Shown here piece after piece: positions 3,325 through 29,644 of a DNA stretch of 32,523 nucleotides. The stretch is from Candidatus Nanopelagicales bacterium (lineage in GTDB: Bacteria; Actinomycetota; Actinomycetes; S36-B12; UBA5976): NCBI GenBank assembly GCA_044239795.1, contig JBIIAS010000003.1, forward strand, positions 1 to 32,523, in the 5' to 3' direction. Each line of letters starts with the position of its first letter. The stretch's first letter is position 1. The position numbers and the translations under genes are program-made. The notes below the pieces were generated by a model that did no database searches, was not told the DNA's origin, and saw nothing but the letters and a program-made list of their open reading frames with translations.

Positions 3325-4059
3325 TTACGGCATCACGTCGCCGCTGTTTGGACCAAGTGTTTGCCCTACATATAAGTTTCCACCTGGACTACTTGCAAGA
3401 AGCACTGCAGTTGGCGCCACTTCTTCGATTTCGCCAAATCTGCCAAGTGGTAACTCCTTAGCCTTTGCGGCCTTCCACTCTTCATCGATGCCAGCCACCA
3501 TTTGGGTATAAACCGGACCTGGTGCAATTGCATTGACCAGAACTCCATTAGCTGAAACTTCTAGTGCCAATGACTTGGTAAACGCAATCACGCCTGCCTT
3601 CGCTGCTGCGTAATGCGCCAAGGATGCCGCTCCCTTGATTCCAAGTTGCGAGGCAACGTTGATGATTCGGCCATCGCCACGCTGCAACATTTGTGGCAAC
3701 ACATGGTGAGTAACTAGGAATACGCCAGACAAATCAACAGCTAAAGTTTCATTCCAAACTTCAAGACTCATATCAACAACTGGTGATTGGGTTGCAATAC
3801 CAGCGGAGTTAACCAAGATATCAATTCTGCCCATCAACTTGGTTGCGGTTGCTACTGCGTAACGTACCGAAGTTTCGTTTGTTACATCGATTGCAACGCC
3901 AAGGCTGCCGATTTCTCGAGCCCGTCGATTAGTAAATTCTTCATTGAAGTCAGCAATGACTACAGTTGCGCCAGCAGCCAAAAATGCTTCTGCAATTCCG
4001 CCACCAATTCCACCGGCACCGCCCACTACTAGTGCGCAGCGTCCACTTAATGCTCCCAT
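3325..4059 (-). CDS. Classical SDR oxidoreductase (FabG-like)
   Basis: GGAGGIG, acidic residue after beta-2 (ADF, NAD-preferring), NSAG, catalytic YAAAK. GGAG RBS. Confidence 0.92.
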   Translation of the reverse strand: MGALSGRCALVVGGAGGIGGGIAEAFLAAGATVVIADFNEEFTNRRAREIGSLGVAIDVTNETSVRYAVATATKLMGRIDILVNSAGIATQSPVVDMSLEVWNETLAVDLSGVFLVTHHVLPQMLQRGDGRIINVASQLGIKGAASLAHYAAAKAGVIAFTKSLALEVSANGVLVNAIAPGPVYTQMVAGIDEEWKAAKAKELPLGRFGEIEEVAPTAVLLASSPGGNLYVGQTLGPNSGDVMP

Positions 4060-4077
4060 TGTGTTCTCCTTGATTTC

Positions 4078-4842
4078 TTAGACTGGTAAACGAACGGTGT
4101 AAGCGCCATCAACGATTATCGCTTGCCCACTGATGTAGGAAGCTTTTGGTGAAGATAGGAAATCAATCAAACTTGCTACATCATCAGGAGTGCCTACTCG
4201 ACCTGCTGGAATTGACCCAGCAATCATCTTCAGTCCTTCTGGTCCAAGCGAGTTAACTGGATCTAATGATTGTGGTGATTCGATAATTCCTGGCACAACC
4301 GAGTTAACTGTGATTCCACGAGGCGCTAGTTCAATTGCCAAACTTCGTACAAGTCCCAAAAGTCCAGCTTTCGCTGTTGTGTAGTGCGCATGCTCTGGCC
4401 AACCATAAACCGCACCTGCGATGGACGAAACCGCAACCATGCTTCCAGAAGATTTCATCACTTTGCTTGCCGACCGAAACGTGCGTAAGACGCCGGTTAA
4501 ATCTACTTGGAGCATGTCATCCCAAGCAGCATCAGTTAAATCAGCAAGAGCTGCATTGCGAAGAATTCCCGCATTAGCAACTGCAATAGTTAGGTTTCCA
4601 AACTCATCAATAGCGCGCTGTGCGAAGGCATCAACTTGACCTGAGTCTCGAACATCAACTTCATGAACAACGGACTCACCACCCTGAGCCGCAACTAGGC
4701 TTTGAGTTTGCATTGGGTCATGTGGGTCTCCAGGGAAAGTTCCAATTACAACTTTCACTCCGCGCGCGGCCATTTGAACTGCGGTTGCTCTTCCAATGCC
4801 ACTAGCGGCACCAGAAATAATTGCGACATCATGGTTTGTCAT
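4078..4842 (-). CDS. Classical SDR oxidoreductase with GDPHDP loop
   Basis: SGAASGIG, NAG, SS..G, YTTAK, PG. GGAG RBS. Confidence 0.92.
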   Translation of the reverse strand: MTNHDVAIISGAASGIGRATAVQMAARGVKVVIGTFPGDPHDPMQTQSLVAAQGGESVVHEVDVRDSGQVDAFAQRAIDEFGNLTIAVANAGILRNAALADLTDAAWDDMLQVDLTGVLRTFRSASKVMKSSGSMVAVSSIAGAVYGWPEHAHYTTAKAGLLGLVRSLAIELAPRGITVNSVVPGIIESPQSLDPVNSLGPEGLKMIAGSIPAGRVGTPDDVASLIDFLSSPKASYISGQAIIVDGAYTVRLPV

Positions 4843-4960: not shown

Positions 4961-5665
4961 GTGGCACGTCAACCGGCTGGGCCTCCAGCATATGATCGGG
5001 TCGCCAACGATATTCGATTGCGAATAACAACCGGCGACCTAAATCCTGGCGATCAATTACCAGTCGAAAGCGACTTGGTTGATATCTACCAAGTCAGTCG
5101 TGGCACATTGCGTGAAGCCCTCAGATTACTGGCATCCGAAGGATTGCTAGAAACGATTCGCGGCCGAACTGGCGGAACATTTGTTACTCAAATTCTGCCA
5201 GCAGATATAAGCAGGCTTTTAAACGATGTCCTGGGCCTAACTGTTCAGGGCGAATCTCTATCAATTTCACACTTGGCAGAAGTTCGCTCATTGATTGAGC
5301 CACCTGCTGCAGCACTTGCAGCAGGCAGAGCAAAATACTCCTCGGTTGCTAAATTGCATGACTATTTACATCCAACGACCCAAGAAGAGCAACTTGAATT
5401 TAACTGGCATTGGCACCGGGAAGTTATGCGCCTGACTGATAACCCGTTGATCGTTGCGCTTTTTGAACCTGTGTTTCATCAGCTTCGAGGACGGTTCGAC
5501 CGATCGAAAGAGCAAAAATCCACCTGGGATCAGATTTTGAAAGAACACCTTGAAATCACCCAGTTAATCGAAGCTGGCGATGTTGCTGGCGTGCAAATAG
5601 CAATGGCAAAACACCTTGGCTATGTCAATGAGACCTACCTATCCTTGGATAAATCCGCCCACTAA
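4961..5665 (+). CDS. GntR family, FadR subfamily transcriptional regulator
   Basis: wHTH motif L.PGDQLP.E.DL...Y.VSRGTLREAL..L..EGL...RGRTGGTFV, followed by an FCD domain (E.R..IEP, H..., NP, EH..I...I..GD, M..HL). Confidence 0.93.
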   Translation: MARQPAGPPAYDRVANDIRLRITTGDLNPGDQLPVESDLVDIYQVSRGTLREALRLLASEGLLETIRGRTGGTFVTQILPADISRLLNDVLGLTVQGESLSISHLAEVRSLIEPPAAALAAGRAKYSSVAKLHDYLHPTTQEEQLEFNWHWHREVMRLTDNPLIVALFEPVFHQLRGRFDRSKEQKSTWDQILKEHLEITQLIEAGDVAGVQIAMAKHLGYVNETYLSLDKSAH

Positions 5666-5762
5666 TGGGGTTTTGGGTGTTAAGTCCGATAAATACCTGC
5701 GTTTTTGAGACTTTTTGCAAATTCCCCCTGCCAAATGCAGGAAATCCAAATAAAGTACAGGT

Positions 5763-5779
5763 AAAAGGTAGGACTATTT
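5763..5779 (+). promoter_or_regulatory. Putative operator site B (AAAAGGTAGGACTATTT)
   Basis: Just downstream of the TAAAGT -10 candidate (5751-5756) and upstream of the GAGGAGG RBS of the CoA-transferase operon, a repressor-like position. Confidence 0.6.
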
Positions 5780-5803: not shown

Positions 5804-7021
5804 ATGTTGCCTCTTGAGTCGGTCACCATAATTTCCTTAGAGCAATACGGTGCAGGTCCTTTTGCCACTATGCATCTAGCAGACCTTGGCGCCACAGTTA
5901 TCAAGATTGAAGATCCCACAGTTAATGGGGATATCGCACGATGGGTGCCACCGTTTCAAAAGGAAGATACCTCGTTATTTTTCGAATCATTTAACCGAAA
6001 TAAACAAAGCATTAGTTTGAATATCGCAACAGAAGCTGGACTTGAAGTTTTTCATGATCTAGTGCGAAATAGTGACGCAGTTTTTTCTAACTTACGTGGG
6101 GATGTTCCCGAAAAAATTGGAATTACCTACGATCAGTTAAAGGAAGTTAATCCTGCGATTGTTTGTTGTTCGCTGTCTGGTTACGGCCAAACTGGTCCTC
6201 GCGCACTAGATCCAGGGTATGACTACATGCTGCAAGCCTTAACCGGGTGGATGGATTTAACTGGTGAACCAGATGGACCGCCTACAAAAAGTGGATTGTC
6301 ATTAGTTGATTTTTCGGGTGGCCTTGTAGCTGCAACCGCAATCTTGGCTGGTGTTACTTCTGCAAGGATCACTGGGATCGGAACTGATTGCGACTTAAGT
6401 CTTTATGACACAGCTCTTGGGATGCTGACATATGTGGCGACTTGGGAAATGACTGGAAACTTCTCAGTTTCGCGTACTCATCATTCTGCTCATCCAACTC
6501 TGGTTCCATTCCAGGCATTTGAATCAAGTAATGGCTGGCTTGTCGTGGGTTGCGCTAAAGAAAAATTCTGGGTGCGGCTAACAAAAGTTCTTGATGCACC
6601 CGAATTGGAATCTGACCCTAGATTTTCCTCATTTGCGACTCGTTTTGAGAATAAGGATGACTTGCTTCCAATTCTGGAATCGATTTTCTTAAAGAAGGAC
6701 AACCAGACTTGGATAGCTGCGCTTCGTGCAGCTGGCGTTCCATGCGGTGAAGTTAATTCAGTTAGCGAAGCTCTCGCTGACAGTCACACCATCTCGAGAG
6801 AGATGATAGTTAAGTTTGACCATCCGGAATTTGGTGAAGTATCAAGTGTTGCTTCACCAATCAAAGTTGGCAAAACTCGGGTTAAGCACAAAGCAGCACC
6901 AAAGTTGAATCAAAACCAAGATGAGATTCTGCGACAGCGTTTGAATTACAGCGATGCGAAGATTGCGGAATTAACTGTTGGAAATGCATTCACATCTACA
7001 AACGAAAAGGAACCAGATTAG
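5804..7021 (+). CDS. Class III CoA-transferase (CaiB/BaiF family)
   Basis: AGPFATMHLADLGA.VIKIE, NRNK.S, SLSGYGQTGP, GYD, catalytic Asp in SLVDFSGG. Strong GAGGAGG RBS. Confidence 0.93.
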   Translation: MLPLESVTIISLEQYGAGPFATMHLADLGATVIKIEDPTVNGDIARWVPPFQKEDTSLFFESFNRNKQSISLNIATEAGLEVFHDLVRNSDAVFSNLRGDVPEKIGITYDQLKEVNPAIVCCSLSGYGQTGPRALDPGYDYMLQALTGWMDLTGEPDGPPTKSGLSLVDFSGGLVAATAILAGVTSARITGIGTDCDLSLYDTALGMLTYVATWEMTGNFSVSRTHHSAHPTLVPFQAFESSNGWLVVGCAKEKFWVRLTKVLDAPELESDPRFSSFATRFENKDDLLPILESIFLKKDNQTWIAALRAAGVPCGEVNSVSEALADSHTISREMIVKFDHPEFGEVSSVASPIKVGKTRVKHKAAPKLNQNQDEILRQRLNYSDAKIAELTVGNAFTSTNEKEPD

Positions 7022-7024
7022 GCC

Positions 7025-8188
7025 ATGGACTTTGAATTAAATGAAGATCAAAAAGAGTTTCAAAATGTCATGCGAGATTTTGTTAACAAGGAAATCAACC
7101 CAGTCGCCATGGAAATGGAAAAGTCTGGTGAATATCCCGAAAAGATCGTTCAGGGACTAAAGGACTTAGGTCTCTTCGGCATGACAGTTCCTGAAGAGTA
7201 CGGTGGCTTAGATCTAGACCCAGTTTCATTTGCAATCGTCTTTGAGGAACTTGCCCGAGGTTGGGTTGGTATCGCTGGAGTTTTAGGAAGTCACTCGCTA
7301 GCCTGCCACTTGATTGCAAAGAATGGCACACCAGAACAGAAGCAGAAGTACCTGCCTGATTTAGCAACCGGAAAGCGCCGAACCGGAATTGGCCTCACAG
7401 AACCAGATGCTGGCACGGACTTGCAAGGTATTAAAACTACTGCAGTGCGCGATGGAGATCATTACGTTATTAATGGTGCAAAAACTTGGATCACTAATGC
7501 TCGCCATGCAGATCCACTACCTGTTTTAGTCAAGACAGATCCAAAGGCTGACCCTCGCCATAAGGGAATGAGTGTAATCCTCGTTGAAGCATCAACTCCA
7601 GGATTTTCAATCAGTAAAGATATTGGGAAGCTCGGTTACAAGGGTCCAGAGTCTTGCGAAGTTGTACTTGATAATGTTCGAGTTCCAGTCACTGAACTAG
7701 TTGGTGGCGTTGAAGGCCAGGGCATGAAGCAAGTTCTTGGAGCACTGGAATCGGGAAGAGTAAACATCGCGGCTAGATCTGTCGGAATCGCACAAGCCGC
7801 CTACGATGCTGCACTTAAGTACAGTCGAGAGCGCGAAGCCTTCGGACAACCTATTTCAGATTTCCAAGCGATTCAACTCAAGTTAGGTGAAATGGCTACT
7901 AACTTGCAGGCTGCTCGATTGCTTACTTACTGGGCAGCAAGCGTGCAGGGTTCCGGCGCTCGATCAGATATGCACAGTGGAATGGCTAAGTACTTTGCAT
8001 CAGAAGTTGCGATCAAGGCTTCCTTGGAAGCAATGCGAATCCATGGTGGTTATGGCTATTCAACTGAGTATGTAGTTGAACGCCTGTACCGTGATGCTCC
8101 TTTGATGGCTATCGGTGAAGGCACAAATGACATTATGAAAATGGTTATTGCTAAGGCACTTATATCAGGAAAAGAAGTTATCAATTAA
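7025..8188 (+). CDS. Acyl-CoA dehydrogenase
   Basis: LTEPDAGTD, NGAKTWITN, R..FGQPI..FQ, HGGYGY..EY.VER.YRDA and catalytic Glu in IGEGTN. Confidence 0.95.
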   Translation: MDFELNEDQKEFQNVMRDFVNKEINPVAMEMEKSGEYPEKIVQGLKDLGLFGMTVPEEYGGLDLDPVSFAIVFEELARGWVGIAGVLGSHSLACHLIAKNGTPEQKQKYLPDLATGKRRTGIGLTEPDAGTDLQGIKTTAVRDGDHYVINGAKTWITNARHADPLPVLVKTDPKADPRHKGMSVILVEASTPGFSISKDIGKLGYKGPESCEVVLDNVRVPVTELVGGVEGQGMKQVLGALESGRVNIAARSVGIAQAAYDAALKYSREREAFGQPISDFQAIQLKLGEMATNLQAARLLTYWAASVQGSGARSDMHSGMAKYFASEVAIKASLEAMRIHGGYGYSTEYVVERLYRDAPLMAIGEGTNDIMKMVIAKALISGKEVIN

Positions 8189-9012
8189 TGCTTCGTAGCT
8201 ACCTGTATGTTCCTGGTGACGATCTGGTCAAGTTAACAAAAGCTCTGACCAGAGGTGCTGATGCGCTAATAGTTGACCTAGAAGATGGTGTGGCTTTTGA
8301 TAACAAAGAAGTCGCGCGTTCTGTCGTTTCTGAATTCCTAGAAAGCAAGGAAAGCAACTGGCCAAGTATCTGGGTGCGCCTCAATCCAGGCACCTTGCTT
8401 ACCTCAGACATACAGGCAATTCCAATTAACAAACTCGATGGGGTTGTTCTTGCGAAAACTGATTCGACTTCTGACCTTGACAACTTAGTATCCGAACTTG
8501 GTGATAGTTCAGATTTACCAGTAATGGCTCTCGTGGAAAGTGGTCTTGGAGTAACAAATCTCCTTGATGTTGTTAAACATGAAAGTGTTAGCTTGCTCCA
8601 GGTCGGTGAGGCCGACCTGGCGGCAGATCTAGGAATAACTCCTGATAGTCACTCCTCGCAATTCAACTATGTGCGGCAGCAAGCAGTTGTGGCTTGTGCT
8701 GCAGCCAAACTAAACGCTCCAATCGCTCCAGTTAGTACAAACTTTCGCGACCTTGAGCTATTCCGTGAAACTACTCAGTCTCTTGCCGACATGGGATATT
8801 TTGGTCGGGCCTGTATTCATCCAGCTCAAATCGAAATAGTTAATTCGGTGTTTACTCCAACTCACGAACAAATCGAAAAAGCTCTTGACACCATGAGCAG
8901 GTACGACGCAGCTCTTGCTTCTGGCTCGGGGGTTTGCCTTGATTTAGACGGCAGACTTGTTGATGAAGCGATAATTCGCTCAGCTCGAAGAATTATTGCG
9001 AATCAGCGCTAG
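8188..9012 (+). CDS. CitE-like CoA-ester lyase (HpcH/HpaI aldolase/citrate lyase family)
   Basis: RSYLYVPG, D.LIVDLEDGV, WVRLN, VES..G, GEADLAADLG, G..G..CIHP.Q. TAATG coupling with the dehydrogenase. Confidence 0.9.
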   Translation: MLRSYLYVPGDDLVKLTKALTRGADALIVDLEDGVAFDNKEVARSVVSEFLESKESNWPSIWVRLNPGTLLTSDIQAIPINKLDGVVLAKTDSTSDLDNLVSELGDSSDLPVMALVESGLGVTNLLDVVKHESVSLLQVGEADLAADLGITPDSHSSQFNYVRQQAVVACAAAKLNAPIAPVSTNFRDLELFRETTQSLADMGYFGRACIHPAQIEIVNSVFTPTHEQIEKALDTMSRYDAALASGSGVCLDLDGRLVDEAIIRSARRIIANQR

Positions 9013-9018: not shown

Positions 9019-9933
9019 ATGTCCACAACAACCAAGAAGTCCAATCTTGGAATTGGTCTTGCGGTTTTATACATTTGTTGGGGCAGCAGTTTCTTGGGAA
9101 TCGAGAAAGCAGTTTCTGGATTTCCACCATTAACTTCGGTTTTTATTCGATTCCTACTTGCCAGTTTGTTGCTTGCCAGCTTTATTACTTGGCGATCAGG
9201 GTGGCGCGCGCTACTTATTCCTAAGCGGGCAATTCCACAAACTGTTGGACTGGGCGTCCTCATGCTTTCTGTTGGCAACGGTGGAGTGTCAATGGCCCAA
9301 TCTCAAGGAATGCCATCATGGTTGGCCGCTTTAGTAATCGCTACTGTTCCGATTTGGGTGGTATTGCTTAGATTGGCTTTTGGTGAGCGAGTTGCCAAGT
9401 CAACTTTGATTGGAACTGGAATCGCGTTTTCTGGCACTTGTGCGCTGTTGTTGTCTGCATCGCAAAATGGCGAAGCCCGGCCAGAGAGTTTGTTGTTTGC
9501 CTTGCTGGGTGCGCTTGGCTGGTCGCTTGGCTCATTTCTTGCCTCTCGAACACCACAGTCAGAACAACCCATGATCAGCGGAACGCATCATTTATTTTTT
9601 GCCTCTCTTGGCATATTGGTTTTGGTTCTCCTGTCAGACGAACCAAGTGAATGGCAAAGTATGCAGCCTGACGCGTCGGCCATATTTGGTTTGCTCTGGT
9701 TGATAGTCGCAGGATCCAGCATCGGTCTTGTTGTGTACAACTGGGTGGTCACCCAGTCTTCTGTTTCAGTTGGCAATACTTATGCATTTAGTAACCCAGT
9801 CATAGCAACACTTCTGGCAGTAACTGTGGTGCACAATCGACCTTCACAAGGAGCTTTGCTCTCTATACCTTTTGTTGTTTTTGGCGTAGCGTTAATTATC
9901 TTGGGTGACAGAAAGGTTGTGACTCCGGCTTGA
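9019..9933 (+). CDS. EamA/DMT family transporter (YedA-like)
   Basis: About 10 hydrophobic helices in two repeats; LYICWGSSF, PP.....RF, YAFSNPVIA. Confidence 0.88.
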   Translation: MSTTTKKSNLGIGLAVLYICWGSSFLGIEKAVSGFPPLTSVFIRFLLASLLLASFITWRSGWRALLIPKRAIPQTVGLGVLMLSVGNGGVSMAQSQGMPSWLAALVIATVPIWVVLLRLAFGERVAKSTLIGTGIAFSGTCALLLSASQNGEARPESLLFALLGALGWSLGSFLASRTPQSEQPMISGTHHLFFASLGILVLVLLSDEPSEWQSMQPDASAIFGLLWLIVAGSSIGLVVYNWVVTQSSVSVGNTYAFSNPVIATLLAVTVVHNRPSQGALLSIPFVVFGVALIILGDRKVVTPA

Positions 9934-21119: not shown

Positions 21120-22499
21120 ATGGAAACCCAGAAAATGGCAAAACCCCTTATAACTATGGCAGTTGAGCACAGTTTGACCCTAAAATTCGAGGATATTCCG
21201 GATTCCACGAAATCTAATGCCAAGACGCTAATTCTGGACAGCCTGGGCGTAGGCCTGGCTGGAAGCTCCACCACCGAGTCAGGTTGGCTCCAAGGTTTCG
21301 CTGCCGCGAACAGCTCTGGCGAGACTTCAAACGGTTGGAACATGGGCCAAAAGCTTGATGCAGCAAACGCGGCCATGATCAATGCCCACCAAATGCATAC
21401 TCTTGAGTTTGACGCAATTCACGAACCCGCTGTTGTGCATCCGATGACCGTTGTTCTACCAAGTGTTGTCGCGTGGATGCAGCGAGAGCATGTCGCAAGT
21501 GGCTATGTTCCAAATGGAAAAGATTTAATCAAAGCCGTTTGTGTTGGAGTTGATATCGCAGGTGGTCTTGGCGATGTAACCACTTCACCACTTCAATTCT
21601 TTCGCCCCGCTACCGCAGGTGCATTAGGTGCAGTAGCCGCTATCAATTCAATTTCAGCGCCAACTAATGAAGCTGCTATGTCAGCTCTAGGCATTGTCTA
21701 TGGATTGCTTTCAGGCACGATGCAAGCCCACACCGAAGGTGCTCAAGTTTTAGCTTTGCAAGTTGGCTTTAATGCCAGATCTGCAATAAATGCAATCGAT
21801 CTTTCACAACGCGGATTCATTGGACCGGAATACATACTCGAAGGTAAGTACGGATACTTTTCGCTATTTGAAAAAGCTGGCGATCCGGAAGCCTTAATGA
21901 ATCGACTAGGTAGTCAGTGGGAAGTTGATCGCACATCACTTAAGCCATTCCCAAGCGGTCGAGCCACGCATGGAGCCTTGGATGCAATTCTGCAACTGCG
22001 TTCAGAGTTTGGTTTGAGTCGAGATCAAATCGAATCAATTGCTGTAACTGTCCCGCCTATGGTTTACAACTTAGTTGGCCGACGTCCAGATGTAGATATG
22101 CCTGTTGGTGCTGCTCGATTATGCCTTGCTTATCTAGTTCCACTTGCGATCGACAGTGGGCAAGTAAATCTGGATTGCTATCTAGATGAAAATTTACGAA
22201 ATTCAGAAATTCATAACTGGGCACAACGAATTTCGGTGACGGCTGATAGTAACCCTGACCTAAATGCATTTGACCCTCAGAAGGTTTCCATAACTCTGAA
22301 ATCTGGCGAAGTCCTCGAGAAGGAAATGCCATATTCATTGGGAAGTCCAACCAATCCGATGTCAGAAACACAAGTGTTGGAAAAACTGAACGCAAATCTC
22401 AGTCTTGTGGGGCGCGGTAGCTTGTTTGAAGATATCGTTGAGACCGTGAGTAACCTAGAGAATCAAAGCAACTTGAACGCACTATTTGGGAGTCTTTAA
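21120..22499 (+). CDS. MmgE/PrpD family protein (start uncertain: 21108, 21120 or 21135)
   Basis: ILDSLGV.LAG, AA.INA...H.LEFD..H....HP, G.G....LEG..G, KPFPS....H and C-terminal G.P.NPM. Confidence 0.9.
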   Translation: METQKMAKPLITMAVEHSLTLKFEDIPDSTKSNAKTLILDSLGVGLAGSSTTESGWLQGFAAANSSGETSNGWNMGQKLDAANAAMINAHQMHTLEFDAIHEPAVVHPMTVVLPSVVAWMQREHVASGYVPNGKDLIKAVCVGVDIAGGLGDVTTSPLQFFRPATAGALGAVAAINSISAPTNEAAMSALGIVYGLLSGTMQAHTEGAQVLALQVGFNARSAINAIDLSQRGFIGPEYILEGKYGYFSLFEKAGDPEALMNRLGSQWEVDRTSLKPFPSGRATHGALDAILQLRSEFGLSRDQIESIAVTVPPMVYNLVGRRPDVDMPVGAARLCLAYLVPLAIDSGQVNLDCYLDENLRNSEIHNWAQRISVTADSNPDLNAFDPQKVSITLKSGEVLEKEMPYSLGSPTNPMSETQVLEKLNANLSLVGRGSLFEDIVETVSNLENQSNLNALFGSL

Positions 22500-23854
22500 T
22501 GAGTTCTCCTTACTTTGATGCTTTTGACTACAAACGCCTTAGTGAGGAATATCCAACGGGCGCAAATTTCATTTCCAAATACTCTGGAATGTCTCGTCAG
22601 CAGCTTGAAGATATCCAACAGCAGAGGTTTAAGGAAGTTGTTGAATGTGCTTGGGATACTCCGTTTTACCGTTCACTATGGCTGGCTTCAGGGGTAGCAA
22701 AATCTGACGTAACCGATCTTTCTGATATTCATAAGTTGCCAATCATTGATAAATCTATGATCCTGGCTGATATTGAAGCTCACCCTCCATTTGGAAGCCT
22801 GCCAAGTCGTCTTGAGAAGTCGGGGCAACAAAGAATTTTGCAGACCACAAGTGGCACAACGGGAAATCCACAGCCAGTGCTGTGGGGTCCATGGGGACGC
22901 GAAGTTCAGAATGCATTGCTTGGAAGGACTTATACCTGGCTGGGAGTTAACTCCTCAGATGTAATGCACAGTGTTTACGGACACGGTTTAGTTAACGGTG
23001 GTCACTACATCAGAGAAGCCGCAACTAGGTACACCGAGGCGCTAATGCTTACGGCTGGCACTGGAATTGAAACTAGATCGGAACGACAAGTTGCAGTGAT
23101 GTCCCAATTTGGAGTCTCTGTACTTGTTGGATTTGCTGACTATTTGCTCAAGTTAGCCCAAGTTGCCTCTGACCAAAATCTGAAACCTGGAAAAGACATT
23201 CCAGTGCGAATGATTATTGGTCACGTTTTAGAAGGTGGCCGAGATGCCTTGGAGAATGCCTGGGGTGGTGCAAAAGTTTATAACTGGTACGGCGTTGCAG
23301 ATACTGGAATCGTTGCAACTGAAGGGCCAGAGCGCGATGGAATGCATGTTTGGGAAGATGCCAACTTCCTTGAAATCATAAACTTCGAAGATCCAGCTAG
23401 CGCAATGGGCGACATGGTTGTTACCAGTTTGGGTAAAAGCGATTTGGCTCCGCTGATCAGATTCAATACTCATGACTTAACGTCGTTGCATACTTCTGGC
23501 AGCAGTGACTACCCATTCCAGAAAATCGTCGGCCTTCTCGGACGCAGCGACAACATGGTAAAACTCAAAGGGATAAATGTTTACCCAACTGCTATCGGAG
23601 GGATGTTGCAAGAGGTTGCAAGCTTCACCGGAGAATACGTTTGTCGCGTCGAGAATCTAGATGGTGTCGAAAAGTTCACAGTAGTTGCTGAGTTGGCAAT
23701 CGAGGACGGGGATTCGCAAGAGTCCGTTAAGCGACTACTAGCTCAGAAGTTGGGAGTAACCGTGGAAGTTGAGATTGTTGCTCCTGGACAAACTGCCGAA
23801 GTGACGGGACTAAACACTAGGCAGAAACCTGCTCGACTATTGGATTTGCGCTAG
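22499..23854 (+). CDS. Phenylacetate-CoA ligase (PaaK)-family adenylate-forming enzyme
   Basis: PFY, LPII.K, P-loop TTSGTTG.P, YG..D, PLIRF...D, GRSD.M.K.KG.NVYP. TAATG coupling. Confidence 0.88.
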   Translation: MSSPYFDAFDYKRLSEEYPTGANFISKYSGMSRQQLEDIQQQRFKEVVECAWDTPFYRSLWLASGVAKSDVTDLSDIHKLPIIDKSMILADIEAHPPFGSLPSRLEKSGQQRILQTTSGTTGNPQPVLWGPWGREVQNALLGRTYTWLGVNSSDVMHSVYGHGLVNGGHYIREAATRYTEALMLTAGTGIETRSERQVAVMSQFGVSVLVGFADYLLKLAQVASDQNLKPGKDIPVRMIIGHVLEGGRDALENAWGGAKVYNWYGVADTGIVATEGPERDGMHVWEDANFLEIINFEDPASAMGDMVVTSLGKSDLAPLIRFNTHDLTSLHTSGSSDYPFQKIVGLLGRSDNMVKLKGINVYPTAIGGMLQEVASFTGEYVCRVENLDGVEKFTVVAELAIEDGDSQESVKRLLAQKLGVTVEVEIVAPGQTAEVTGLNTRQKPARLLDLR

Positions 23855-25125
23855 TGAATCAGGACATCTCAGCCATTTTGGAGTCGTACCAAAATGGCAA
23901 CACCCCTTCAGAAGTAGTTCTAACGGCTTCGAAGGTTACGGATACATGTTTTGCAATAGAGCAGCGGCTTACAGGTGCTGAAAATTCCGCACGGGATTCT
24001 GATGCTCTATTTGCTTCTAATTCCCAAAGAGCATTAGAAGGAATACCTTTTTCAGTTAAGGCAAACATTGACGTAGCGGGAGTCGTAACTTCCAATGGAA
24101 CGTCAATGGAAACTCAACCGGCAACCAAATCTGCTCGGATAATTGAACAGTTAAGTGGCGCCGGAGCTATTCCAGTCTTTACAACCACAATGGCCGAACT
24201 GGCAATTGGTGCAGTCACCGACAATGCACATACTGGAATTTGTGTAACTCCTGCTAATCCAAATCTTCACGCCGGAGGCTCAAGTGGTGGCTCTGGAGCA
24301 AGTGTTGCAGCCGGCTGGGTACCGTTTTCATTAGGTTCGGACACCATGGGGAGCGTACGAATTCCAGCTGCCTATTGCGGAGTTTTTGGATTTAAACCGT
24401 CTTCGCAAGCTATTGATCGGGCAGGCTTGGCTCCGCTGTATCCACCTATGGACACCATAGGAATTATTGCGAATACGGTTTCTGATATTCAGGCAGTGAT
24501 GAGTGTCTGTGCTGCAACAGGTTGGTCTGATGATCTAGAGCCTACGAATACTTTATTGATCCCAAGTTTTATCCAAAAGTCACACTCTGAAGTTCTCAAA
24601 AATTTCAATAACCAATTATCAAAGATTCGCTCAAGTGCAATCAATCATGGATTTACCGTAATCGATCTAGAACTTGATTTGGACTTAGGATTACTTCGAC
24701 GACGCGGGCTTTTACTTTGCGAAGTTACTGCCTGGAAGAATTTTTCAAATGCCGATGCAGTCCCCGCAGGAATATCAGAGCCAATAGCTGATTTGCTTAG
24801 GTATGGTGCCTCAGCTAAACCTGAAAAAGTAGAAGAGGCACGAGGAGTGTTAGCAAAAACTTCAGATTTGATGTCCAAAGCGCTAGATCAATTCCTTGGA
24901 AACTCAATGTTGATTCTGCCAGTTACGCCTTTTCCGACACCTGACATATCAGCAACAAACGAAGATCTAGCCACAAGTGCTGACTTCACTTGTTTGGCAA
25001 ATATTTGCGATTTGCCAGCAATAAGCATTCCGGCACCGGGGCAGGCAATTCAGCTTATGGCCAAGAATGGTGATGACTATCGACTACTCAACATGGCCAA
25101 AACCATTTACAAGATTCTTGGTTAA
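23854..25125 (+). CDS. Amidase-signature family amidase 2
   Basis: LEGIPFSVKAN, GGSSGGSGA.VA, LGSDTMGSVRIPAAYCG..GFKP. Confidence 0.88.
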   Translation: MNQDISAILESYQNGNTPSEVVLTASKVTDTCFAIEQRLTGAENSARDSDALFASNSQRALEGIPFSVKANIDVAGVVTSNGTSMETQPATKSARIIEQLSGAGAIPVFTTTMAELAIGAVTDNAHTGICVTPANPNLHAGGSSGGSGASVAAGWVPFSLGSDTMGSVRIPAAYCGVFGFKPSSQAIDRAGLAPLYPPMDTIGIIANTVSDIQAVMSVCAATGWSDDLEPTNTLLIPSFIQKSHSEVLKNFNNQLSKIRSSAINHGFTVIDLELDLDLGLLRRRGLLLCEVTAWKNFSNADAVPAGISEPIADLLRYGASAKPEKVEEARGVLAKTSDLMSKALDQFLGNSMLILPVTPFPTPDISATNEDLATSADFTCLANICDLPAISIPAPGQAIQLMAKNGDDYRLLNMAKTIYKILG

Positions 25126-25132: not shown

Positions 25133-25906
25133 TTACTGAAATTTAGCGGTTCGCTTTTCCAGAAAAGCCGAAATTCCTTCGGCATGATCTGGCGAAACCA
25201 TTGCATCTTTAACAAAACTCAGGGTTTGTTCTGAATCTTCCCGTTGTCCGGAAAGCACTAACTCAATTTCAGTTTTCATGGACCTTACAGATGAGCTGCT
25301 ATTTGCCAGTATCAAGGTGATCCACTTATCTCTGATTGATTCAATCTCACTCGAGGAAGTTAGTTCATCTACATACCCCCACTGGGAGGCCTCGGTGGCA
25401 GAAAAAGTTCTACTGGTAAAAAGCAGTTGCTTGGCGATTGCCGGACCTACTAAATCAGTCAGCGCCACGATGTCTGAATAGGGATAGACCATGCCAAGTT
25501 TGGCCGGCGTGATAGCAAATGTTGAATTTGTGGAAGCTATTCGAAAGTCACAAGCAACAGCGAGTGCAGCTCCGCCCCCGAAACAAGGTCCGTCAATAAT
25601 CGCAATCGTTGGAATTGGGATCGCTCGAACTGATTCGATGGCTTTAGCAACTACCGCTTGACTTTGTGCTGCCCACTCGCCATCGCCTGCATGTTCGCGG
25701 TACTCAGATACATCTGCACCTGCACTGAATATTCCAGGAGAGTTAGATTCAACTGTGACAATCTTTAGTTTTGAATTTGCAGCAATCTCTTGCGAAATAT
25801 TCTCAAGTTTTTTCCACATTTCTTGATCAAAGGCATTCTTTTTTTCTGCCCTATTCATCGAAATGGTGGCAAGCGATTGAGTTATCTTTAATTCGATTCG
25901 ACTCAC
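25133..25906 (-). CDS. Enoyl-CoA hydratase/isomerase (crotonase) family protein (start GTG 25906 or TTG 25924)
   Basis: NR.EK.NA, FSAGAD, P.IA.I.G.C.GGG..LA..CDFR, EG..AF.EKR. The usual catalytic Glu positions read A and P. Confidence 0.9.
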   Translation of the reverse strand: MSRIELKITQSLATISMNRAEKKNAFDQEMWKKLENISQEIAANSKLKIVTVESNSPGIFSAGADVSEYREHAGDGEWAAQSQAVVAKAIESVRAIPIPTIAIIDGPCFGGGAALAVACDFRIASTNSTFAITPAKLGMVYPYSDIVALTDLVGPAIAKQLLFTSRTFSATEASQWGYVDELTSSSEIESIRDKWITLILANSSSSVRSMKTEIELVLSGQREDSEQTLSFVKDAMVSPDHAEGISAFLEKRTAKFQ

Positions 25907-25962
25907 TGCACACCCACTAATCAAAAATGTTCAACTACCTGAACTTTATGGCCCTTAGTCAT

Positions 25963-26830: not shown

Positions 26831-27604
26831 CTACCAAGGTAACTCAGCACCATTCATTCCGATGCATTGGCCGCTGATGTACTCAGCATCGTCTGTGCAT
26901 AGCCAAGATACAGTTGCTGCAACATCTGCAGGTGTCCCAAACCTGCCCCAAGGCACAGTGGACAAAAACTCTTGCAAGGTCTCATCGCGAGATTTTCCAA
27001 GCTTTTTGCCCATGCCTTCAACGATGTCTTCCCACAGCGGCGTCATGATATGTCCAGGCGTGTAGCAGTTAACTCGAATCTTTGCTGGTGCTAGTTCTTG
27101 AGCGAAACTTTGGCTCATCATGATGATTGCAGCCTTGGTTGCGCAGTACTGGGAAAACATCGGTACGCCATGCCTGCCTCCACCGGATGATGCATTTACA
27201 ATTACTCCGCCCTTGTTGTCTCGGGACATGTAATCAGCCGCCACTTTAGATCCAAGTGCCACGCCAACTACATTCACATTCAGCATTTTCATCCAGCTCT
27301 CAGCCGTCGTATCTGCGAGTCCGGCTACGTTGATGATGCCAGCATTGTTGACCATGGCATCTAATCGAGATGTGTGGCGCAACAATTCTTCTACTGCATT
27401 ACGAATCATGGATTCATCACAGACATCAACTTTGCAGTAAAAAACTTGACCTGGGTATGTTTTCTCTAATTTAGAAATATCAGGTTCTTGTATGTCTGCA
27501 ATTACAACTACCGCGCCATCGTGCAGAAACCTTTCGACAATACCAAGTCCAATACCGCTGGATCCCCCAGTTACTACAACACCTTTACCGCTATGCGTTC
27601 CCAT
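26831..27604 (-). CDS. SDR oxidoreductase (acetoin/polyol dehydrogenase-like)
   Basis: TGGSSGIG, ADI, NNAG, SS.GG, YCATK, PG...TPLW. The start at 27604 has a GGAAGG/GGTGG RBS. Confidence 0.9.
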   Translation of the reverse strand: MGTHSGKGVVVTGGSSGIGLGIVERFLHDGAVVVIADIQEPDISKLEKTYPGQVFYCKVDVCDESMIRNAVEELLRHTSRLDAMVNNAGIINVAGLADTTAESWMKMLNVNVVGVALGSKVAADYMSRDNKGGVIVNASSGGGRHGVPMFSQYCATKAAIIMMSQSFAQELAPAKIRVNCYTPGHIMTPLWEDIVEGMGKKLGKSRDETLQEFLSTVPWGRFGTPADVAATVSWLCTDDAEYISGQCIGMNGAELPW

Positions 27605-28016
27605 GATCCACCTTCCAGAATGGCTTTCTATTTTTGACATTTGCTAACAAAGAAGTATCAAATTCCTCTAATGAATACCCTGCAGGCTGAGGAGGATTTA
27701 TGTTGTAACCAGTTTTTTCATTGACTCTTCGCAAAACTTCTGGCGACTCGTAGTAGGCAATGTAGACAGCATTCAATAAGATGGCAAACTCTTTAGGGAA
27801 GCTTGATTCACATTTACTAACTTCCGCCTCTGCCTGATCAACACCTATTTCAGCCAAGTTAACCGGCAAGGTATCAAGCATTTTCTCAACCAACGAGTAG
27901 TCATGTAATCGAGAAATATCTGCAATCAGGGATTCAGATGAAATTGCTTGAGCGGCACTTGGATGGCCGTCACTTGCTGGAATCAAAATCTCCAAGAGAT
28001 TTTCAATTTTCGTCAT
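27591..28016 (-). CDS. Small partner subunit of GMC dehydrogenase 2 (gluconate 2-dehydrogenase subunit 3-like), no Tat signal
   Basis: LLEILIP....HPSA and IAYYESPEV...Y...PP.P.G...PFW shared with 13388-13891; ATGA coupling with the GMC. Confidence 0.68.
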   Translation of the reverse strand: MTKIENLLEILIPASDGHPSAAQAISSESLIADISRLHDYSLVEKMLDTLPVNLAEIGVDQAEAEVSKCESSFPKEFAILLNAVYIAYYESPEVLRRVNEKTGYNINPPQPAGYSLEEFDTSLLANVKNRKPFWKVDHGNA

Positions 28017-29644
28017 AATGAACTCACCTGCTGTCGAAATGCTTCAGTTTCGTCCATGGGCGGAAGTAGTTTTCGCTCTAACATGGCATCAGCAGAGCGT
28101 AATGCGAATGCTTGAATTGTTGAAGTTGGGTTCAAGGCACCAGCAGTTACGAACACACTGCCATCTACAATCCAGAGATTATCAAAATCATGCGTCCGTC
28201 CAGTGGCGCTTACAACTGAATCCTTTGAATCATCTCCCATTCGAGCCGTGCCCAGCAGATGGAAGCCAGCTGAACCAACTAGAGGGACTGTAAGTATCTC
28301 GGTAGCTCCTGCTTCTTTGAGTACTTCGGTGTTTGTGCGAATTCCAAAGTCCAAAAGCTTTTGGGCATTTTCATCAACACGATAGGTCAGTTTTGGAATT
28401 CTCGATCCTTTGCTATCAACTTTGTCCGAAAGCGTGACTCGGTTTTCCGGATTTGGCATATCTTCAGTCGTCACTGTAATGCTGGCAGTCTTGCCGAACT
28501 GCCGATAAAAATCAGCGTGATGATTTCTACCCCACTTCACTGGTTTGGTGTATCCACCTGATGCAGTTCCAAGTGGTCCGTCGCTTCTAATTGTTTGAGC
28601 TTGATAGCCCCGGACAAATCCACGCGATGGATCAGTTTCGTAAAACTCTTGACTATAGATACTGACCGCGAATGGGCCCTTAAATCCATCAACATATTCA
28701 TCAAAGACACCAGTTACCAATGCAGTTGGATGGTGCATAAGATTTCTGCCTACTTGATCTGAACTATTTGCTAATCCAGTTGGGGAATCTGAATTAGCGC
28801 TCAAGAGAAGTAATCTTGCGGTTCCAATTCCGTTTCCAGCGAGTACAACATTATTTGCTTTCAGTGAGTGCGTTTCACCATTTCGATCTATGTACTCAAC
28901 ACCCGTAACTTTGTTTTGGTGTGATGTGATTTTTTGTACGGCTGCCTCGGTTATTAGTTCAGCGCCAGCTGCAATCGCTTCGGGCCAATAGGCAAGATCA
29001 ACGCTAGCTCTGGAGCCGCGCGGGCATCCCAGGTCACATGGGCCGCAATTGTTGCAGCCCTTGCGCACACCTTTTTGGCCATTTGTAATCGCTGCATCAA
29101 CAGGCCACCAGTGGTATCCGAGGCGTTCATAAGCCTGAGCTATTCGCTGTGCTCCAACACCGATAGGAAGAGGCGGAAATTCTCGTTCGGCGCGTGGTGG
29201 ATAAGCAGGATCACCGGCTAGTCCTGAAACGCCCATCATTTGATCATTTATTTCAAAATACTCTGCTAAATCAAAATAAGAAATTGGCCAATCGCGAGCA
29301 ACACCATCCAAAGACTTAACTCTGAAATCCGATGGCTTCATTCGAGGAAAATGCGCTCCCCAATGAATTGTGGAGCCACCCACTGCGTTGTATAGCGATG
29401 GCTGAATCGGGGTATCCGTTGCATCGATTGGGTAGTCCCAGCTATTCATTCGCACATTTGGATTTGGGTTATGGCTACGCTGCCTGGCTTGTTCCCAAGC
29501 TGGAGTTAGTGATGGCGCAGATTCAGGTGCAACCCACCCACCTTGCTCCAAACAAACAACTTTTGCACCACCTAGTGCCAGTCGCCACGAAACTGCAGCA
29601 CCTGACGCCCCGGCACCAATGACTAAGAAATCGATTTCCTTCAC
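28013..29644 (-). CDS. GMC family FAD oxidoreductase 2 with Cys-rich Fe-S motif
   Basis: GAGASG, VGGSTIHW, WPISY.DL..Y, CNNCGPCDLGCP, HLLGTARMG, NPTST; clear paralog of 13891-15477. Confidence 0.92.
   Translation of the reverse strand: MKEIDFLVIGAGASGAAVSWRLALGGAKVVCLEQGGWVAPESAPSLTPAWEQARQRSHNPNPNVRMNSWDYPIDATDTPIQPSLYNAVGGSTIHWGAHFPRMKPSDFRVKSLDGVARDWPISYFDLAEYFEINDQMMGVSGLAGDPAYPPRAEREFPPLPIGVGAQRIAQAYERLGYHWWPVDAAITNGQKGVRKGCNNCGPCDLGCPRGSRASVDLAYWPEAIAAGAELITEAAVQKITSHQNKVTGVEYIDRNGETHSLKANNVVLAGNGIGTARLLLLSANSDSPTGLANSSDQVGRNLMHHPTALVTGVFDEYVDGFKGPFAVSIYSQEFYETDPSRGFVRGYQAQTIRSDGPLGTASGGYTKPVKWGRNHHADFYRQFGKTASITVTTEDMPNPENRVTLSDKVDSKGSRIPKLTYRVDENAQKLLDFGIRTNTEVLKEAGATEILTVPLVGSAGFHLLGTARMGDDSKDSVVSATGRTHDFDNLWIVDGSVFVTAGALNPTSTIQAFALRSADAMLERKLLPPMDETEAFRQQVSSL

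Follow-up and report, generated by a model that had tools for sequence, protein, structure and literature searches.

What does a genome-streamlined freshwater bacterium break down with a dense array of importer subunits, dehydrogenases, amidases, and CoA-dependent enzymes, and do these genes form one system? The question is raised by contig JBIIAS010000003.1 of Candidatus Nanopelagicales bacterium (acI), of which we analyzed a stretch of 32,523 nucleotides, called the window below. Between positions 3325 and 29644, a listing of open reading frames (ORFs) and a Pfam scan gave 25 genes, 24 plus a FadR-type regulator, with four short-chain dehydrogenases/reductases (SDRs) among them, arranged in seven strand blocks plus the regulator (Table 1). 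An earlier note on this DNA had proposed a catabolic cluster of seven transcription units under a single regulator; every gene family that it named was found in its place, and the seven strand blocks are there, the units themselves being deduced from strand switches only. Our answer, to which we give a probability of roughly 55%, is that the window carries at 3265–29717 a 26-kb accessory island and that this island is one co-inherited, two-module catabolic system for a nitrogen-containing organic compound. The genes, boundaries, synteny, and co-occurrence on which we build were observed, and the folds, iron–sulfur (Fe-S) ligands, predicted pairing, and motif conservation were computed.

The boundaries of the island are defined by two island-less genomes of the same genus (G011, 98% complete; G001, 92% complete), in which the island flanks directly abut. 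The order there runs from NuoN-like, polyprenyl synthase, and EamA genes to the NuoB-like gene g04, followed by g03, g02, and DUF520. The flank genes are mostly 79–98% identical to those of the window, with g03 as the exception at 60–82%, and the families at the junction are NuoB-like, NuoC-like, ferredoxin, and DUF520. Because the flanks are adjacent in these genomes, the proposed cluster corresponds to a discrete 26-kb insertion. No tRNA lies at its edges (the only one in the window is a tRNA-Tyr at 1–83), no integrase family was found among the 30 window proteins scanned with Pfam (the four genes of the left flank being DUF520, ferredoxin, and two Nuo-like subunits), and a longest-repeat scan returned no flanking direct repeats. 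GC content is even across the window (0.444–0.481) and thus offers no compositional hint of recent transfer. The EamA transporter gene at the right junction is 53–54% identical in the two island-less genomes and 60–78% identical in island-bearing relatives, and it may have been swapped along with the island. In the left flank, at 2043–3264, small NuoB-like, NuoC-like, and ferredoxin genes adjoin DUF520 and an NDH-2 gene.

Nearly all of the island recurs in a second actinobacterial order. Counterparts of 22 of the 25 island proteins, with 30–67% identity, lie within 4368–32528 of a single 41.6-kb contig from a Mycobacteriales metagenome-assembled genome (MAG; tblastn, E ≤ 1e-8, coverage of at least 50%). 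The units stand in a different order than in acI, and the gene order inside the units is retained. SDR A1, the EamA gene, and the 514-residue amidase have no counterpart in this cluster by tblastn. Identities in the DUF2848 unit are 60% for the GMC dehydrogenase, 30% for the small ORF, 48% for HapK, and 67% for both the SDR and DUF2848; in the second GMC unit they are 66% (GMC), 31% (small ORF), and 59% (SDR), and in the ATP-binding cassette (ABC) importer 44–58%. The remaining counterparts are CitE (43%), GntR (40%), acyl-CoA dehydrogenase (67%), CoA-transferase (59%), PuuE-like (67%), crotonase (46%), amidase (41%), PaaK-like (59%), and PrpD (49%). Behind DUF2848, the Mycobacteriales cluster ends with an alpha/beta hydrolase, an SDR (49%), and another amidase. 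A few kilobases from its right end (L089 15935–18511, G041:C33), we observed an AbiEi/AbiEii toxin–antitoxin pair and a gene with a TOTE-type primase domain, which suggests that the Mycobacteriales region is likewise variable. Among acI-type metagenome loci, L095 and L096 hold nearly the whole island in the same order, and L094 holds its last third.

Co-occurrence at the genome level points the same way. A DUF2848 gene was found in 2 of the 24 other same-genus genomes searched and in none of 16 genomes from other families of the order. Five other actinobacterial MAGs chosen for the DUF2848 module, which are mutually related and either 68–70% complete or of unknown completeness, all carry the PaaK-like gene (58–93% identity), and four of the five carry the CoA-transferase (55–85%) and four the PuuE-like gene (66–97%). 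Elsewhere the PaaK-like gene is rare, with a homolog at E ≤ 1e-60 in only 1 of 400 other Actinomycetota genomes. The discrete insertion, the near-complete, rearranged conservation in Mycobacteriales, and the co-occurrence across genomes together bear out the proposal that these genes are inherited as a unit. For the wider comparison, we retrieved 80 loci with the DUF2848 profile, all of which were tabulated and 19 mapped in detail, and 50 with the PaaK-like protein, of which 8 were mapped; loci L105–L141 (23–37% identity to the PaaK-like protein; L131 is a short 48% fragment) were set aside as distant paralogs or fragments.

The system is a two-module, co-inherited island rather than an indivisible pathway. 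We assign to the upper module the family-5 ABC importer, the Fe-S GMC dehydrogenases with their small partners, an SDR, the HapK-like protein, and DUF2848; the lower module consists of the PuuE-like hydrolase, an amidase, the PaaK-like ligase, a divergent MmgE/PrpD protein, the CoA-transferase, the acyl-CoA dehydrogenase, and the CitE-like lyase.

In the upper module, the solute-binding protein (SBP) has a lipobox-like ...FFVTAC after an internal Met, and its best solved relatives are peptide, dipeptide, and autoinducer-2 (AI-2)/heme binders, at no more than 122 bits. The ATPase of the importer is a single fused gene in acI and two separate genes in the Mycobacteriales and alphaproteobacterial loci. 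Both GMC dehydrogenases best match the alpha subunit of 3Fe-4S FAD-glucose dehydrogenase and the large subunit of fructose dehydrogenase (187 and 180 bits). Residues C197, C203, and C207 of C5 align with Cys212, Cys218, and Cys222 of 6a2u_B, which PMC6719666 gives as Fe-S cluster ligands, and C197, C200, C203, C207, H464, and N507 are invariant in all 16 aligned GMC homologs. The ligand alignment, the nearest solved relatives, and this invariance support the view, already taken in the earlier note, that these are Fe-S GMC enzymes.

Each GMC gene has a small companion. The two small proteins, C6 and G2, are homologous to each other and to small ORFs behind GMC genes in other loci; no twin-arginine (Tat) motif was found at the N termini of C6, G2, or the homologous small ORFs. 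The predicted C5–C6 complex reached an ipSAE of 0.92 compared with 0.00 for the best of three controls. In calibration, the mark was attained by 58 of the 80 solved complexes and by 2 of the 110 mismatched pairs. Since similar complexes have already been solved, this score shows likeness rather than proof of binding. Three runs with custom alignments shared at least 90% of contacts, with a predicted local distance difference test (pLDDT) score of at least 88 for the partner. No cytochrome family was found among the 25 island proteins by Pfam, and as the island has no cytochrome c gene, the GMC dehydrogenases are probably cytoplasmic.

The remaining genes of the upper module form a recurring trio. 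acI, the Mycobacteriales MAG, and a Dehalococcoidia locus all retain the order HapK–SDR–DUF2848, and an SDR of the C8 type stands beside DUF2848 or a gene of the HapK-like kind in acI, Mycobacteriales, Dehalococcoidia L009, and L097. The HapK-like protein belongs to the HapK/RedY family PF11639 (47.1 bits; cut-off, 25), and its AF2 model (pLDDT 88.3) has HapK 2jdj as top Foldseek match (template modeling [TM] score 0.81, 26% identity), with olivetolic acid cyclase, 4-methylmuconolactone methylisomerase, and LsrG as further matches. For the DUF2848 protein (pLDDT 88.1), Foldseek returned the FAH family with probability 1.00, a TM score of 0.55–0.62, and 11–18% identity, including Cg1458, fumarylpyruvate hydrolase, KdaD, and L-2,4-diketo-3-deoxyrhamnonate hydrolase. 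All 26 aligned DUF2848 sequences share E85, E87, D105, D108, and K120. The DUF2848 profile had no sequence match among PDB chains, Pfam FAA_hydrolase did not match the protein, and a search of the ESM Atlas yielded DUF2848 clusters only. Enzymes with the dimeric α/β barrel (DABB) fold of HapK or with the FAH fold typically act on β-dicarbonyl, lactone, or 2-oxo-acid compounds.

The CoA enzymes of the lower module were compared with specific family models. Its class III CoA-transferase scored best with succinate–glutarate NF052585 (257.3 bits; cut-off, 750) and succinyl-CoA:mesaconate NF041294 (248.2 bits; cut-off, 700), and the CitE-like lyase with RipC/Ccl NF038242 (153.7 bits; cut-off, 375) and citE TIGR01588 (140.4 bits; cut-off, 443.4), all four short of the cut-off; the lyase is placed only in the Pfam HpcH_HpaI superfamily. 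The PaaK-like ligase likewise stayed below the PaaK model TIGR02155 (141.7 versus 646.3 bits), and its best PDB match was 4r1l (158.6 bits). In L097 and L104, two metagenome loci related through the PaaK-like protein, the CoA-transferase is 44% and the acyl-CoA dehydrogenase 49% identical, and a MaoC-type hydratase gene stands between CitE and the acyl-CoA dehydrogenase; in acI and the Mycobacteriales MAG, the crotonase is the sole hydratase candidate. Across the 20 island proteins scanned against NCBIfam, no equivalog-type cut-off was reached, and only the broad SDR subfamily model NF005559 (cut-off, 215) was passed, by two SDRs (226.5 and 219.2 bits). The literature that we searched made no mention of DUF2848, the matches to PF11010 being Plasmodium gene identifiers only. 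Both results agree with the earlier note, which did not recognize the combination as a characterized pathway.

The most unusual member of the lower module is D1. It belongs to the MmgE/PrpD family (N and C domains, 149 and 92.7 bits; cut-off, 32.1), and its best PDB match is cis-aconitate decarboxylase (CAD; about 100 bits). Aligned to this enzyme, D1 retains the H-x2-E pair, the catalytic His, and the last Lys. Two other conserved positions, those of the second His and the first Lys, are occupied by Arg (or Phe-Arg) and Leu; this holds for all 10 sequences of the D1 type, which come from four lineages. We take these positions to be H159 and K207 of CAD. Five of the six other PrpD proteins in the alignment keep both residues; in the sixth, from L022, the Lys is kept and an insertion makes the His column ambiguous. 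PMC12290011 states that H85, D88, H99, H150, K198, and K266 of IDS epimerase are conserved in all MmgE/PrpD members and that all known substrates of the family are C2/C3-substituted succinates. D1 lacks part of this six-residue set, as judged by alignment to cis-aconitate decarboxylase, and by its sequence it is not a canonical member of the family. Because Arg and Leu replace the conserved His and Lys, its ligand may have one altered carboxylate, for example as a half-amide or thioester. A second, canonical-looking PrpD paralog that keeps His and Lys lies directly upstream of the D1-type gene in L097, L098, L100, L101, and L104 (PrpD genes at 7206–9975 in L097 and at 74–1411 and 11028–12413 in L104) and is absent from the acI island and the Mycobacteriales MAG cluster. 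A 118-residue ORF at 21026–21382 overlaps the start of D1, has no family match, and is probably not a real gene.

Three hydrolases could release nitrogen. The best NCBIfam model of the PuuE-like protein is that of PuuE allantoinase, TIGR03212, at 224.8 bits compared with a cut-off of 424.6; the protein is 53–55% identical in L097 and L104. In two related MAGs, its orthologs each contain one in-frame TAA inside the match (L163, G442:C169:1385-2224; L162, G444:C69:12928-13755), which could mark a pseudogene, an assembly error, or a split gene. The 514-residue amidase has amidase 3a1k as best solved relative (320 bits) and reached 457 bits with PRK07235 (cut-off, 545), and the nearest models of the 423-residue amidase are PRK08310, AtzE-family, and allophanate hydrolase, all under cut-off. 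The PuuE-like protein and the amidases would fit a sequence of ring opening followed by deamidation.

Regulation may tie the units together. The regulator has the GntR–FCD domain layout of the FadR subfamily, and its counterpart lies inside the Mycobacteriales cluster. The pattern TCNTACCTTTTWC matches in three intergenic regions, each bearing a promoter and lying upstream of a unit, and the candidate operator sites contain TACCTTTT. Upstream of the second GMC unit, the footprint TACTTAAAAGTC.TACCTTT.TCA is kept within an intergenic region that has otherwise diverged (70% mean column identity), and the core motif is retained at syntenic intergenic sites in L092, L094, L095, and L096. The heptamer ACCTTTT occurs 11 times in the window; of 9 regions that were inspected, 5 contain copies, and four of these 5 are promoter regions. 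The gene of the 423-residue amidase harbors one more copy of the TACCTTTTTCAG core at 24034–24055, with 82% identity over 22 nucleotides to the site upstream of the second GMC unit. Judging by these motifs, several units probably have an operator in common through which the FadR-type regulator controls them; the earlier claim of single-regulator control is thus suggestive only, resting on the conserved candidate motif upstream of three units.

RNA libraries cover part of the island. Contigs from 4 of 4 RNA runs, representing four lake or freshwater studies, cover 19252–20886 of the SBP gene with 90–100% identity, which is compatible with expression in situ; one library also covers a piece of the DUF2848 gene, and most other parts of the island are uncovered. 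Just 3′ of the SBP stop codon, a stable hairpin is predicted. No T-run stands behind it, and the RNA contigs of two studies stop at 19252, a weak hint of a 3′ end. The hairpin could be a transcript-stabilizing or attenuating element that gives excess SBP mRNA.

Table 1. Genes and other features of the island and its right junction, in order of position in the window (strand relative to the window; aa, amino acids; E values for Pfam domains)
Feature	Position	Strand	Remarks
SDR A1, 244 aa	3325–4059	-	Pfam adh_short_C2 6.6e-57; below NCBIfam cut-offs
SDR A2, 254 aa	4078–4842	-	Pfam adh_short_C2 7.9e-60; 49% counterpart at Mycobacteriales cluster edge
GntR-family regulator, FadR subfamily	4961–5665	+	Pfam GntR 1.4e-18 (66.8 bits), FCD 4.8e-18 (66.2 bits)
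Candidate operator, upstream of CoA-transferase unit	5761–5773	-	Match to TCNTACCTTTTWC
Class III CoA-transferase B1	5804–7021	+	Pfam CoA_transf_3 1.5e-117
Acyl-CoA dehydrogenase B2	7025–8188	+	Three ACAD Pfam domains
CitE/HpcH-like acyl-CoA lyase B3	8188–9012	+	Pfam HpcH_HpaI 1.5e-29
EamA-type membrane transporter B4	9019–9933	+	Pfam EamA 9.2e-27; no Mycobacteriales-cluster counterpart
Amidase-signature amidase B5, 514 aa	9930–11474	+	Pfam Amidase 2.3e-81
DUF2848 protein C9, predicted FAH-superfamily fold	11464–12222	-	Pfam DUF2848 2.8e-54
SDR C8	12249–13085	-	Pfam adh_short_C2 2.7e-61
HapK/RedY-like DABB-fold protein C7, 101 aa	13095–13400	-	Pfam HapK 3.7e-12
Small GMC partner subunit C6, 167 aa	13388–13891	-	No Pfam family even at E 0.05
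FAD/Fe-S GMC dehydrogenase C5, 528 aa	13891–15477	-	Pfam GMC_oxred_N, GMC_oxred_C; best PDB 6a2u_B, 7w2j_A
Fused double ABC ATPase C4, 598 aa, oligo_HPY tail	15501–17297	-	Pfam ABC_tran x2 + oligo_HPY
ABC permease C3	17294–18142	-	Pfam BPD_transp_1
ABC permease C2	18139–19158	-	Pfam BPD_transp_1 + BPD_transp_1_N
Stable RNA hairpin	19211–19248	-	Minimum free energy -42.2 kcal/mol, z -8.66, 0/200 shuffles
Family-5 solute-binding lipoprotein C1	19272–21029	-	Pfam SBP_bac_5 4.1e-72
Candidate operator, divergent SBP / MmgE-PrpD promoter region	21051–21063	+	Invariant in 4/4 aligned acI-type sequences
Divergent MmgE/PrpD protein D1	21108–22499	+	Pfam MmgE_PrpD_N, MmgE_PrpD_C
PaaK-like adenylating CoA ligase D2	22499–23854	+	Pfam AMP-binding_C_2
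Amidase-signature amidase D3, 423 aa	23854–25125	+	Pfam Amidase 5.4e-60
Crotonase-family enoyl-CoA hydratase E	25133–25924	-	Pfam ECH_1 2.3e-42; 46% in Mycobacteriales cluster
PuuE-like ring amidohydrolase F, polysaccharide-deacetylase fold, 287 aa	25964–26827	+	Pfam Polysacc_deac_1; 67% in Mycobacteriales cluster
SDR G3	26831–27640	-	Pfam adh_short; passes only broad NF005559 (219.2 versus 215 bits)
Small partner subunit G2, 141 aa	27591–28016	-	No Pfam family; homologous to C6 and alphaproteobacterial small ORFs
FAD/Fe-S GMC dehydrogenase G1, 543 aa	28013–29644	-	Pfam GMC_oxred_N, GMC_oxred_C; same Cys motif; 66% in Mycobacteriales
Candidate operator, upstream of second GMC unit	29666–29678	+	Conserved footprint
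EamA transporter at right junction, variable	29718–30623	-	Pfam EamA

From these parts, a route can be sketched. The lipoprotein SBP and its ABC importer would take up a polar organic compound, whose C–OH groups the two cytoplasmic FAD/Fe-S GMC dehydrogenases, each with a Tat-less small subunit, would oxidize, the NAD(P)-dependent SDRs carrying out the same type of oxidation. The HapK-like and DUF2848 proteins would then isomerize, and cleave or decarboxylate, the β-dicarbonyl or 2-oxo acid so formed. The PuuE-like hydrolase would open a cyclic amide, imide, or ureide, and the amidase-signature amidases would set ammonia free. D1 may act on the leftover acid of the substituted-succinate type, which the PaaK-like ligase, the class III CoA-transferase, or both would activate to a CoA ester. 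Dehydrogenation by the acyl-CoA dehydrogenase and hydration by the crotonase (in relatives, by a MaoC hydratase) would then lead to cleavage by the CitE-like lyase into an acyl-CoA plus a 2-oxo acid, in the manner of methylsuccinate/itaconate degradation. Our best guess for the substrate, made with low confidence, is a compound built on an alkyl- or carboxyalkyl-succinate skeleton, namely a hydroxylated lactam or cyclic imide; again with low confidence, we favor such a compound over a ureide or a nitrogen-free one. Citrate-amide siderophores, opines, oxidized chitin oligomers, and cyanobacterial peptides were considered as substrates and dropped, as nothing specific supported them. Literature searches on imidase, half-amidase, and cyclic imide gene clusters and on isonicotinate, citrazinate, and tricarballylate catabolism returned nothing relevant. 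A 1993 Mycobacterium study reportedly described isonicotinate degradation via citrazyl-CoA, a dioxopiperidine-carboxyl-CoA, and a tricarboxylate, an attractive analog that we mention as an idea and not as evidence.

A more ambitious version of this route, which we think unlikely, would have acI mineralize these hydroxylated lactams or cyclic imides by an as yet undescribed route that is free of oxygenases and includes three new enzyme activities. Substrates of this kind might come from tetrapyrrole pigments, as breakdown products of the maleimide or succinimide type, or be other natural imides. The new activities would be those of a cytoplasmic Fe-S GMC class that oxidizes ring carbinol(amide)s, an MmgE/PrpD subfamily that acts on a half-amide or thioester instead of a free dicarboxylate, and DUF2848 as an FAH-type C–C hydrolase or decarboxylase, which would be its first function. 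That the cluster lacks an oxygenase, as claimed earlier, holds at the level of Pfam, with no oxygenase family in any of the 25 proteins; the claim is less secure for the HapK-like protein, whose DABB fold also houses cofactor-free monooxygenases.

Several observations weigh against a single system, above all the occurrence of the modules apart from each other. A GMC homolog is present in 15 and a family-5-type permease in 31 of the 80 DUF2848 loci. Eight alphaproteobacterial loci and a ninth cut by a contig end (L052, L053, L049, L065, L081, L074, L026, L054, and L032) combine DUF2848 with the ABC system and GMC dehydrogenases (two in 6 of the 9), together with the small ORF where found. Carriers include a SAR116 single-cell genome and Roseibium, Salipiger, and Silicimonas MAGs, and their cluster is likewise uncharacterized. 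L052, the only alphaproteobacterial locus annotated, adds an acyl-CoA dehydrogenase, a PaaK-like ligase, Amidohydro_2, a TauD-like dioxygenase, CMD, an SDR, and two flavoproteins resembling old yellow enzyme (OYE) or dienoyl-CoA reductase, and it is without the PrpD/amidase/PuuE set, so that the upper part occurs alone in Alphaproteobacteria. Conversely, the lower module occurs alone in L097, L101, and L104, three metagenome lineages with 45–48% identity to the PaaK-like protein, where no GMC or DUF2848 gene was found within up to 10 kb on either side of the PaaK-like gene. L097 runs PrpD, PrpD, PaaK, amidase, and CoA-transferase and then HapK, SDR, PuuE, CitE, MaoC, acyl-CoA dehydrogenase, and CoA-transferase; L101 and L104 have PrpD, PaaK, and amidase followed by two CoA-transferases, acyl-CoA dehydrogenase, MaoC, and CitE, with another PrpD and a PuuE-like gene in L104. 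In the related Actinomycetota MAG locus L005 (8095–12119), the cluster end that holds DUF2848 is followed by CMD-family, isochorismatase-family, and 2-oxoacid:ferredoxin oxidoreductase genes, with no CoA-transferase unit, and the NuoB-like and DUF520 flank comes next; because it shares this flank, L005 appears to have the same insertion site with a different cargo. The cultured Nocardioides alcanivorans NGK65 (L022) has a lighter related cluster with an SDR, a family-5 ABC system, an OYE-like flavoprotein, DUF2848, an arylmalonate-decarboxylase/maleate-isomerase-family gene, a CoA-transferase, a canonical-type PrpD, and CitE.

Other points on the same side concern how far the evidence reaches. 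The MAGs behind the co-occurrence counts are incomplete and related, and these counts are therefore not independent. As no NCBIfam equivalog cut-off was reached, every specific enzyme name is an extrapolation. We infer every reaction, the order of the steps, the substrate, and the binding of the regulator. The PuuE-like protein is nearer to allantoinase PuuE 3cl6 (188 bits) than to the imidase-related 3qbu (67 bits). The excess of the three TCNTACCTTTTWC matches over the 0.35 expected is circular, because the pattern was built from these very sites, and a second candidate motif, AAAGTWCAGGTAR, was rejected as not significant (5 matches compared with 2.29 expected, equaled in 4 of 100 shuffles). 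The RNA-library contigs cannot show transcript levels and may hold DNA, and they allow no inference on uncovered genes. The earlier note had itself named independent occurrence of the sub-operons across genomes as evidence against its proposal. This is partly what we find: the modules are separate in other lineages and kept together in Actinomycetota, which argues for a two-module system instead of strict unity.

Which alternatives would account for the same genes? It is possible, although somewhat unlikely, that the island is a flexible-genome mosaic in which at least two independent pathways travel together, with the ABC/GMC/SDR/DABB/DUF2848 genes serving a nitrogen-free polyol, sugar acid, or alicyclic acid and the others serving small amides or imides and C5-dicarboxylates. 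The separate modules of Alphaproteobacteria and of L097, L101, and L104 would follow naturally, the GMC dehydrogenases are nearest to sugar dehydrogenases, and the SDR and FAH-fold pair, with its fold match to L-2,4-diketo-3-deoxyrhamnonate hydrolase, recalls nonphosphorylative deoxy-sugar pathways, which end with SDR and FAH-type steps. However, the modules are interleaved and, although rearranged, have stayed together in two actinobacterial orders; the PaaK-like gene, rare elsewhere, is present in all five actinobacterial DUF2848-module genomes; HapK and SDR, which belong to the upper part in acI, adjoin PuuE and CitE in L097; and the shared candidate motif lies upstream of units from both modules. 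A biosynthetic cluster for a pyrrole-type or similar secondary metabolite, suggested by the occurrence of HapK/RedY and PigA/RedW-like acyl-CoA dehydrogenases in prodiginine clusters, is extremely unlikely. Beyond the Pfam HapK match, it can draw on subthreshold scores of the acyl-CoA dehydrogenase with RedW (230.7 bits; cut-off, 650) and PigA (212.5 bits; cut-off, 500), but this protein scores better with catabolic models, the island proteins include no family of polyketide synthases, nonribosomal peptide synthetases, carrier proteins, or tailoring synthases, and the transporter, which has a solute-binding protein, is an importer.

Two narrower explanations center on single parts of the island. 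Nitrogen scavenging from a ureide or hydantoin, with the PuuE-like protein opening allantoin, a 5-substituted hydantoin, or a dihydropyrimidine and the amidases acting as ureido or carbamoyl hydrolases, would agree with the allantoinase as best solved relative and best NCBIfam model of the former and with the AtzE-family and allophanate hydrolases nearest to the 423-residue amidase. We nonetheless consider it improbable: the scores stay far under the cut-offs of the allantoinase, AtzE, and allophanate models, no allantoate or ureidoglycolate enzyme family occurs among the 25 genes, and the conserved set of CoA-transferase, acyl-CoA dehydrogenase, CitE, and PrpD would be left unexplained. That set is the strength of the other explanation, an ordinary itaconate/methylsuccinate (C5-dicarboxylate) cluster in which the amidases and the PuuE-like gene are incidental; the same four families are clustered in the characterized system (PMC12290011), and RipC/Ccl is the best NCBIfam match of the lyase. 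It is very unlikely in view of all specific models remaining far under their cut-offs, of D1 lacking two residues that are described as conserved throughout the family, and of amidase and PuuE-like genes being conserved with the CoA genes in four lineages. In addition, methylsuccinate isomerases were reported almost exclusively from Pseudomonadota (96.2%) in the same paper (PMC12290011). On balance, the idea of one cluster for an uncharacterized pathway has gained strength, and it is best put as a co-inherited catabolic island of two modules.

What would such a system mean for its host? acI Actinobacteria rank among the most abundant bacteria of fresh water, and their genomes are very small. 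In this assembly (1.41 Mb in 178 contigs, 77% complete), the 26-kb block takes up about 1.4% of the estimated genome. A large accessory block that two actinobacterial orders share nearly intact points to an organic nitrogen and carbon source that is specific and ecologically relevant, one that would be absent from the present list of acI substrates. The cluster also provides a testable context for DUF2848, HapK-like DABB proteins, the residue-swapped MmgE/PrpD clade, and cytochrome-less Fe-S GMC dehydrogenases. If its substrate becomes known, the island could be used as a set of marker genes for metagenomes and metatranscriptomes of lakes.

We also compared the island with known systems. Its enzyme families are not categorically new; it is the combination, the D1 clade, and the DUF2848 context that are uncharacterized. 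The itaconate/methylsuccinate cluster of Pseudomonas aeruginosa and Cupriavidus necator (Ict, Ich, Ccl) comprises a CoA-transferase, an acyl-CoA dehydrogenase, MmgE/PrpD, a hydratase, and a CitE-like lyase, and its dehydrogenase and MmgE/PrpD protein are described in PMC12290011 as methylsuccinyl-C4-CoA dehydrogenase and methylsuccinate isomerase. The island likewise groups a CoA-transferase, an acyl-CoA dehydrogenase, a CitE-like lyase, and MmgE/PrpD, and its relatives L097 and L104 even have a gene of the MaoC/mesaconyl-CoA-hydratase type between lyase and dehydrogenase. The likeness that the earlier note had drawn to this cluster is thus real, being based on shared families and reinforced by the MaoC genes of two related clusters. 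The island differs in its scores far under the specific NCBIfam cut-offs, in its crotonase as hydratase, in the Arg/Leu swap of D1, in its links to the PaaK-like ligase, amidases, PuuE-like hydrolase, GMC dehydrogenases, and ABC importer, and in its host, which belongs to the Actinomycetota.

For the nitrogen-releasing part, the closest logic is that of the end of nicotinate degradation in Aspergillus nidulans, where, according to PMC9304392, the polyol dehydrogenase HxnW (an SDR), the cyclic imidase HxnM (of the PgdA/PuuE kind and related to 3qbu), and the amidase-signature amidase HxnN convert a hydroxylactam to a cyclic imide, open its ring, and yield ammonia and a dicarboxylate. The island has SDRs, a PuuE-like hydrolase, and amidase-signature amidases, but it has no pyridine hydroxylases or monooxygenases, its hydrolase is nearer to PuuE than to 3qbu, and nothing points to homology at the level of orthologs. 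With PuuE allantoinase of Pseudomonas (3cl6), the hydrolase shares the polysaccharide-deacetylase-like family, whereas it stays under the TIGR03212 cut-off and has no other gene of a ureide pathway nearby. The GMC dehydrogenases share their Fe-S Cys residues and the catalytic His/Asn pair with FAD-glucose dehydrogenase of Burkholderia cepacia (gamma-alpha-beta) and with Gluconobacter fructose dehydrogenase, and like the “hitchhiker” small subunit of these enzymes, the product of the adjacent ORF is predicted to bind the catalytic subunit; unlike them, the island has small subunits without a Tat signal, no multiheme cytochrome c gene, and a fourth invariant Cys in CxxCxxCxxxC. Compared with the FAH enzymes fumarylpyruvate hydrolase, FAHD1, KdaD, and L-2,4-diketo-3-deoxyrhamnonate hydrolase, DUF2848 is distant in sequence, matching no solved chain at that level, but its predicted fold matches theirs, it has an invariant E-x-E pair, several Asp, and a Lys, and in close relatives it always has an SDR gene alongside.

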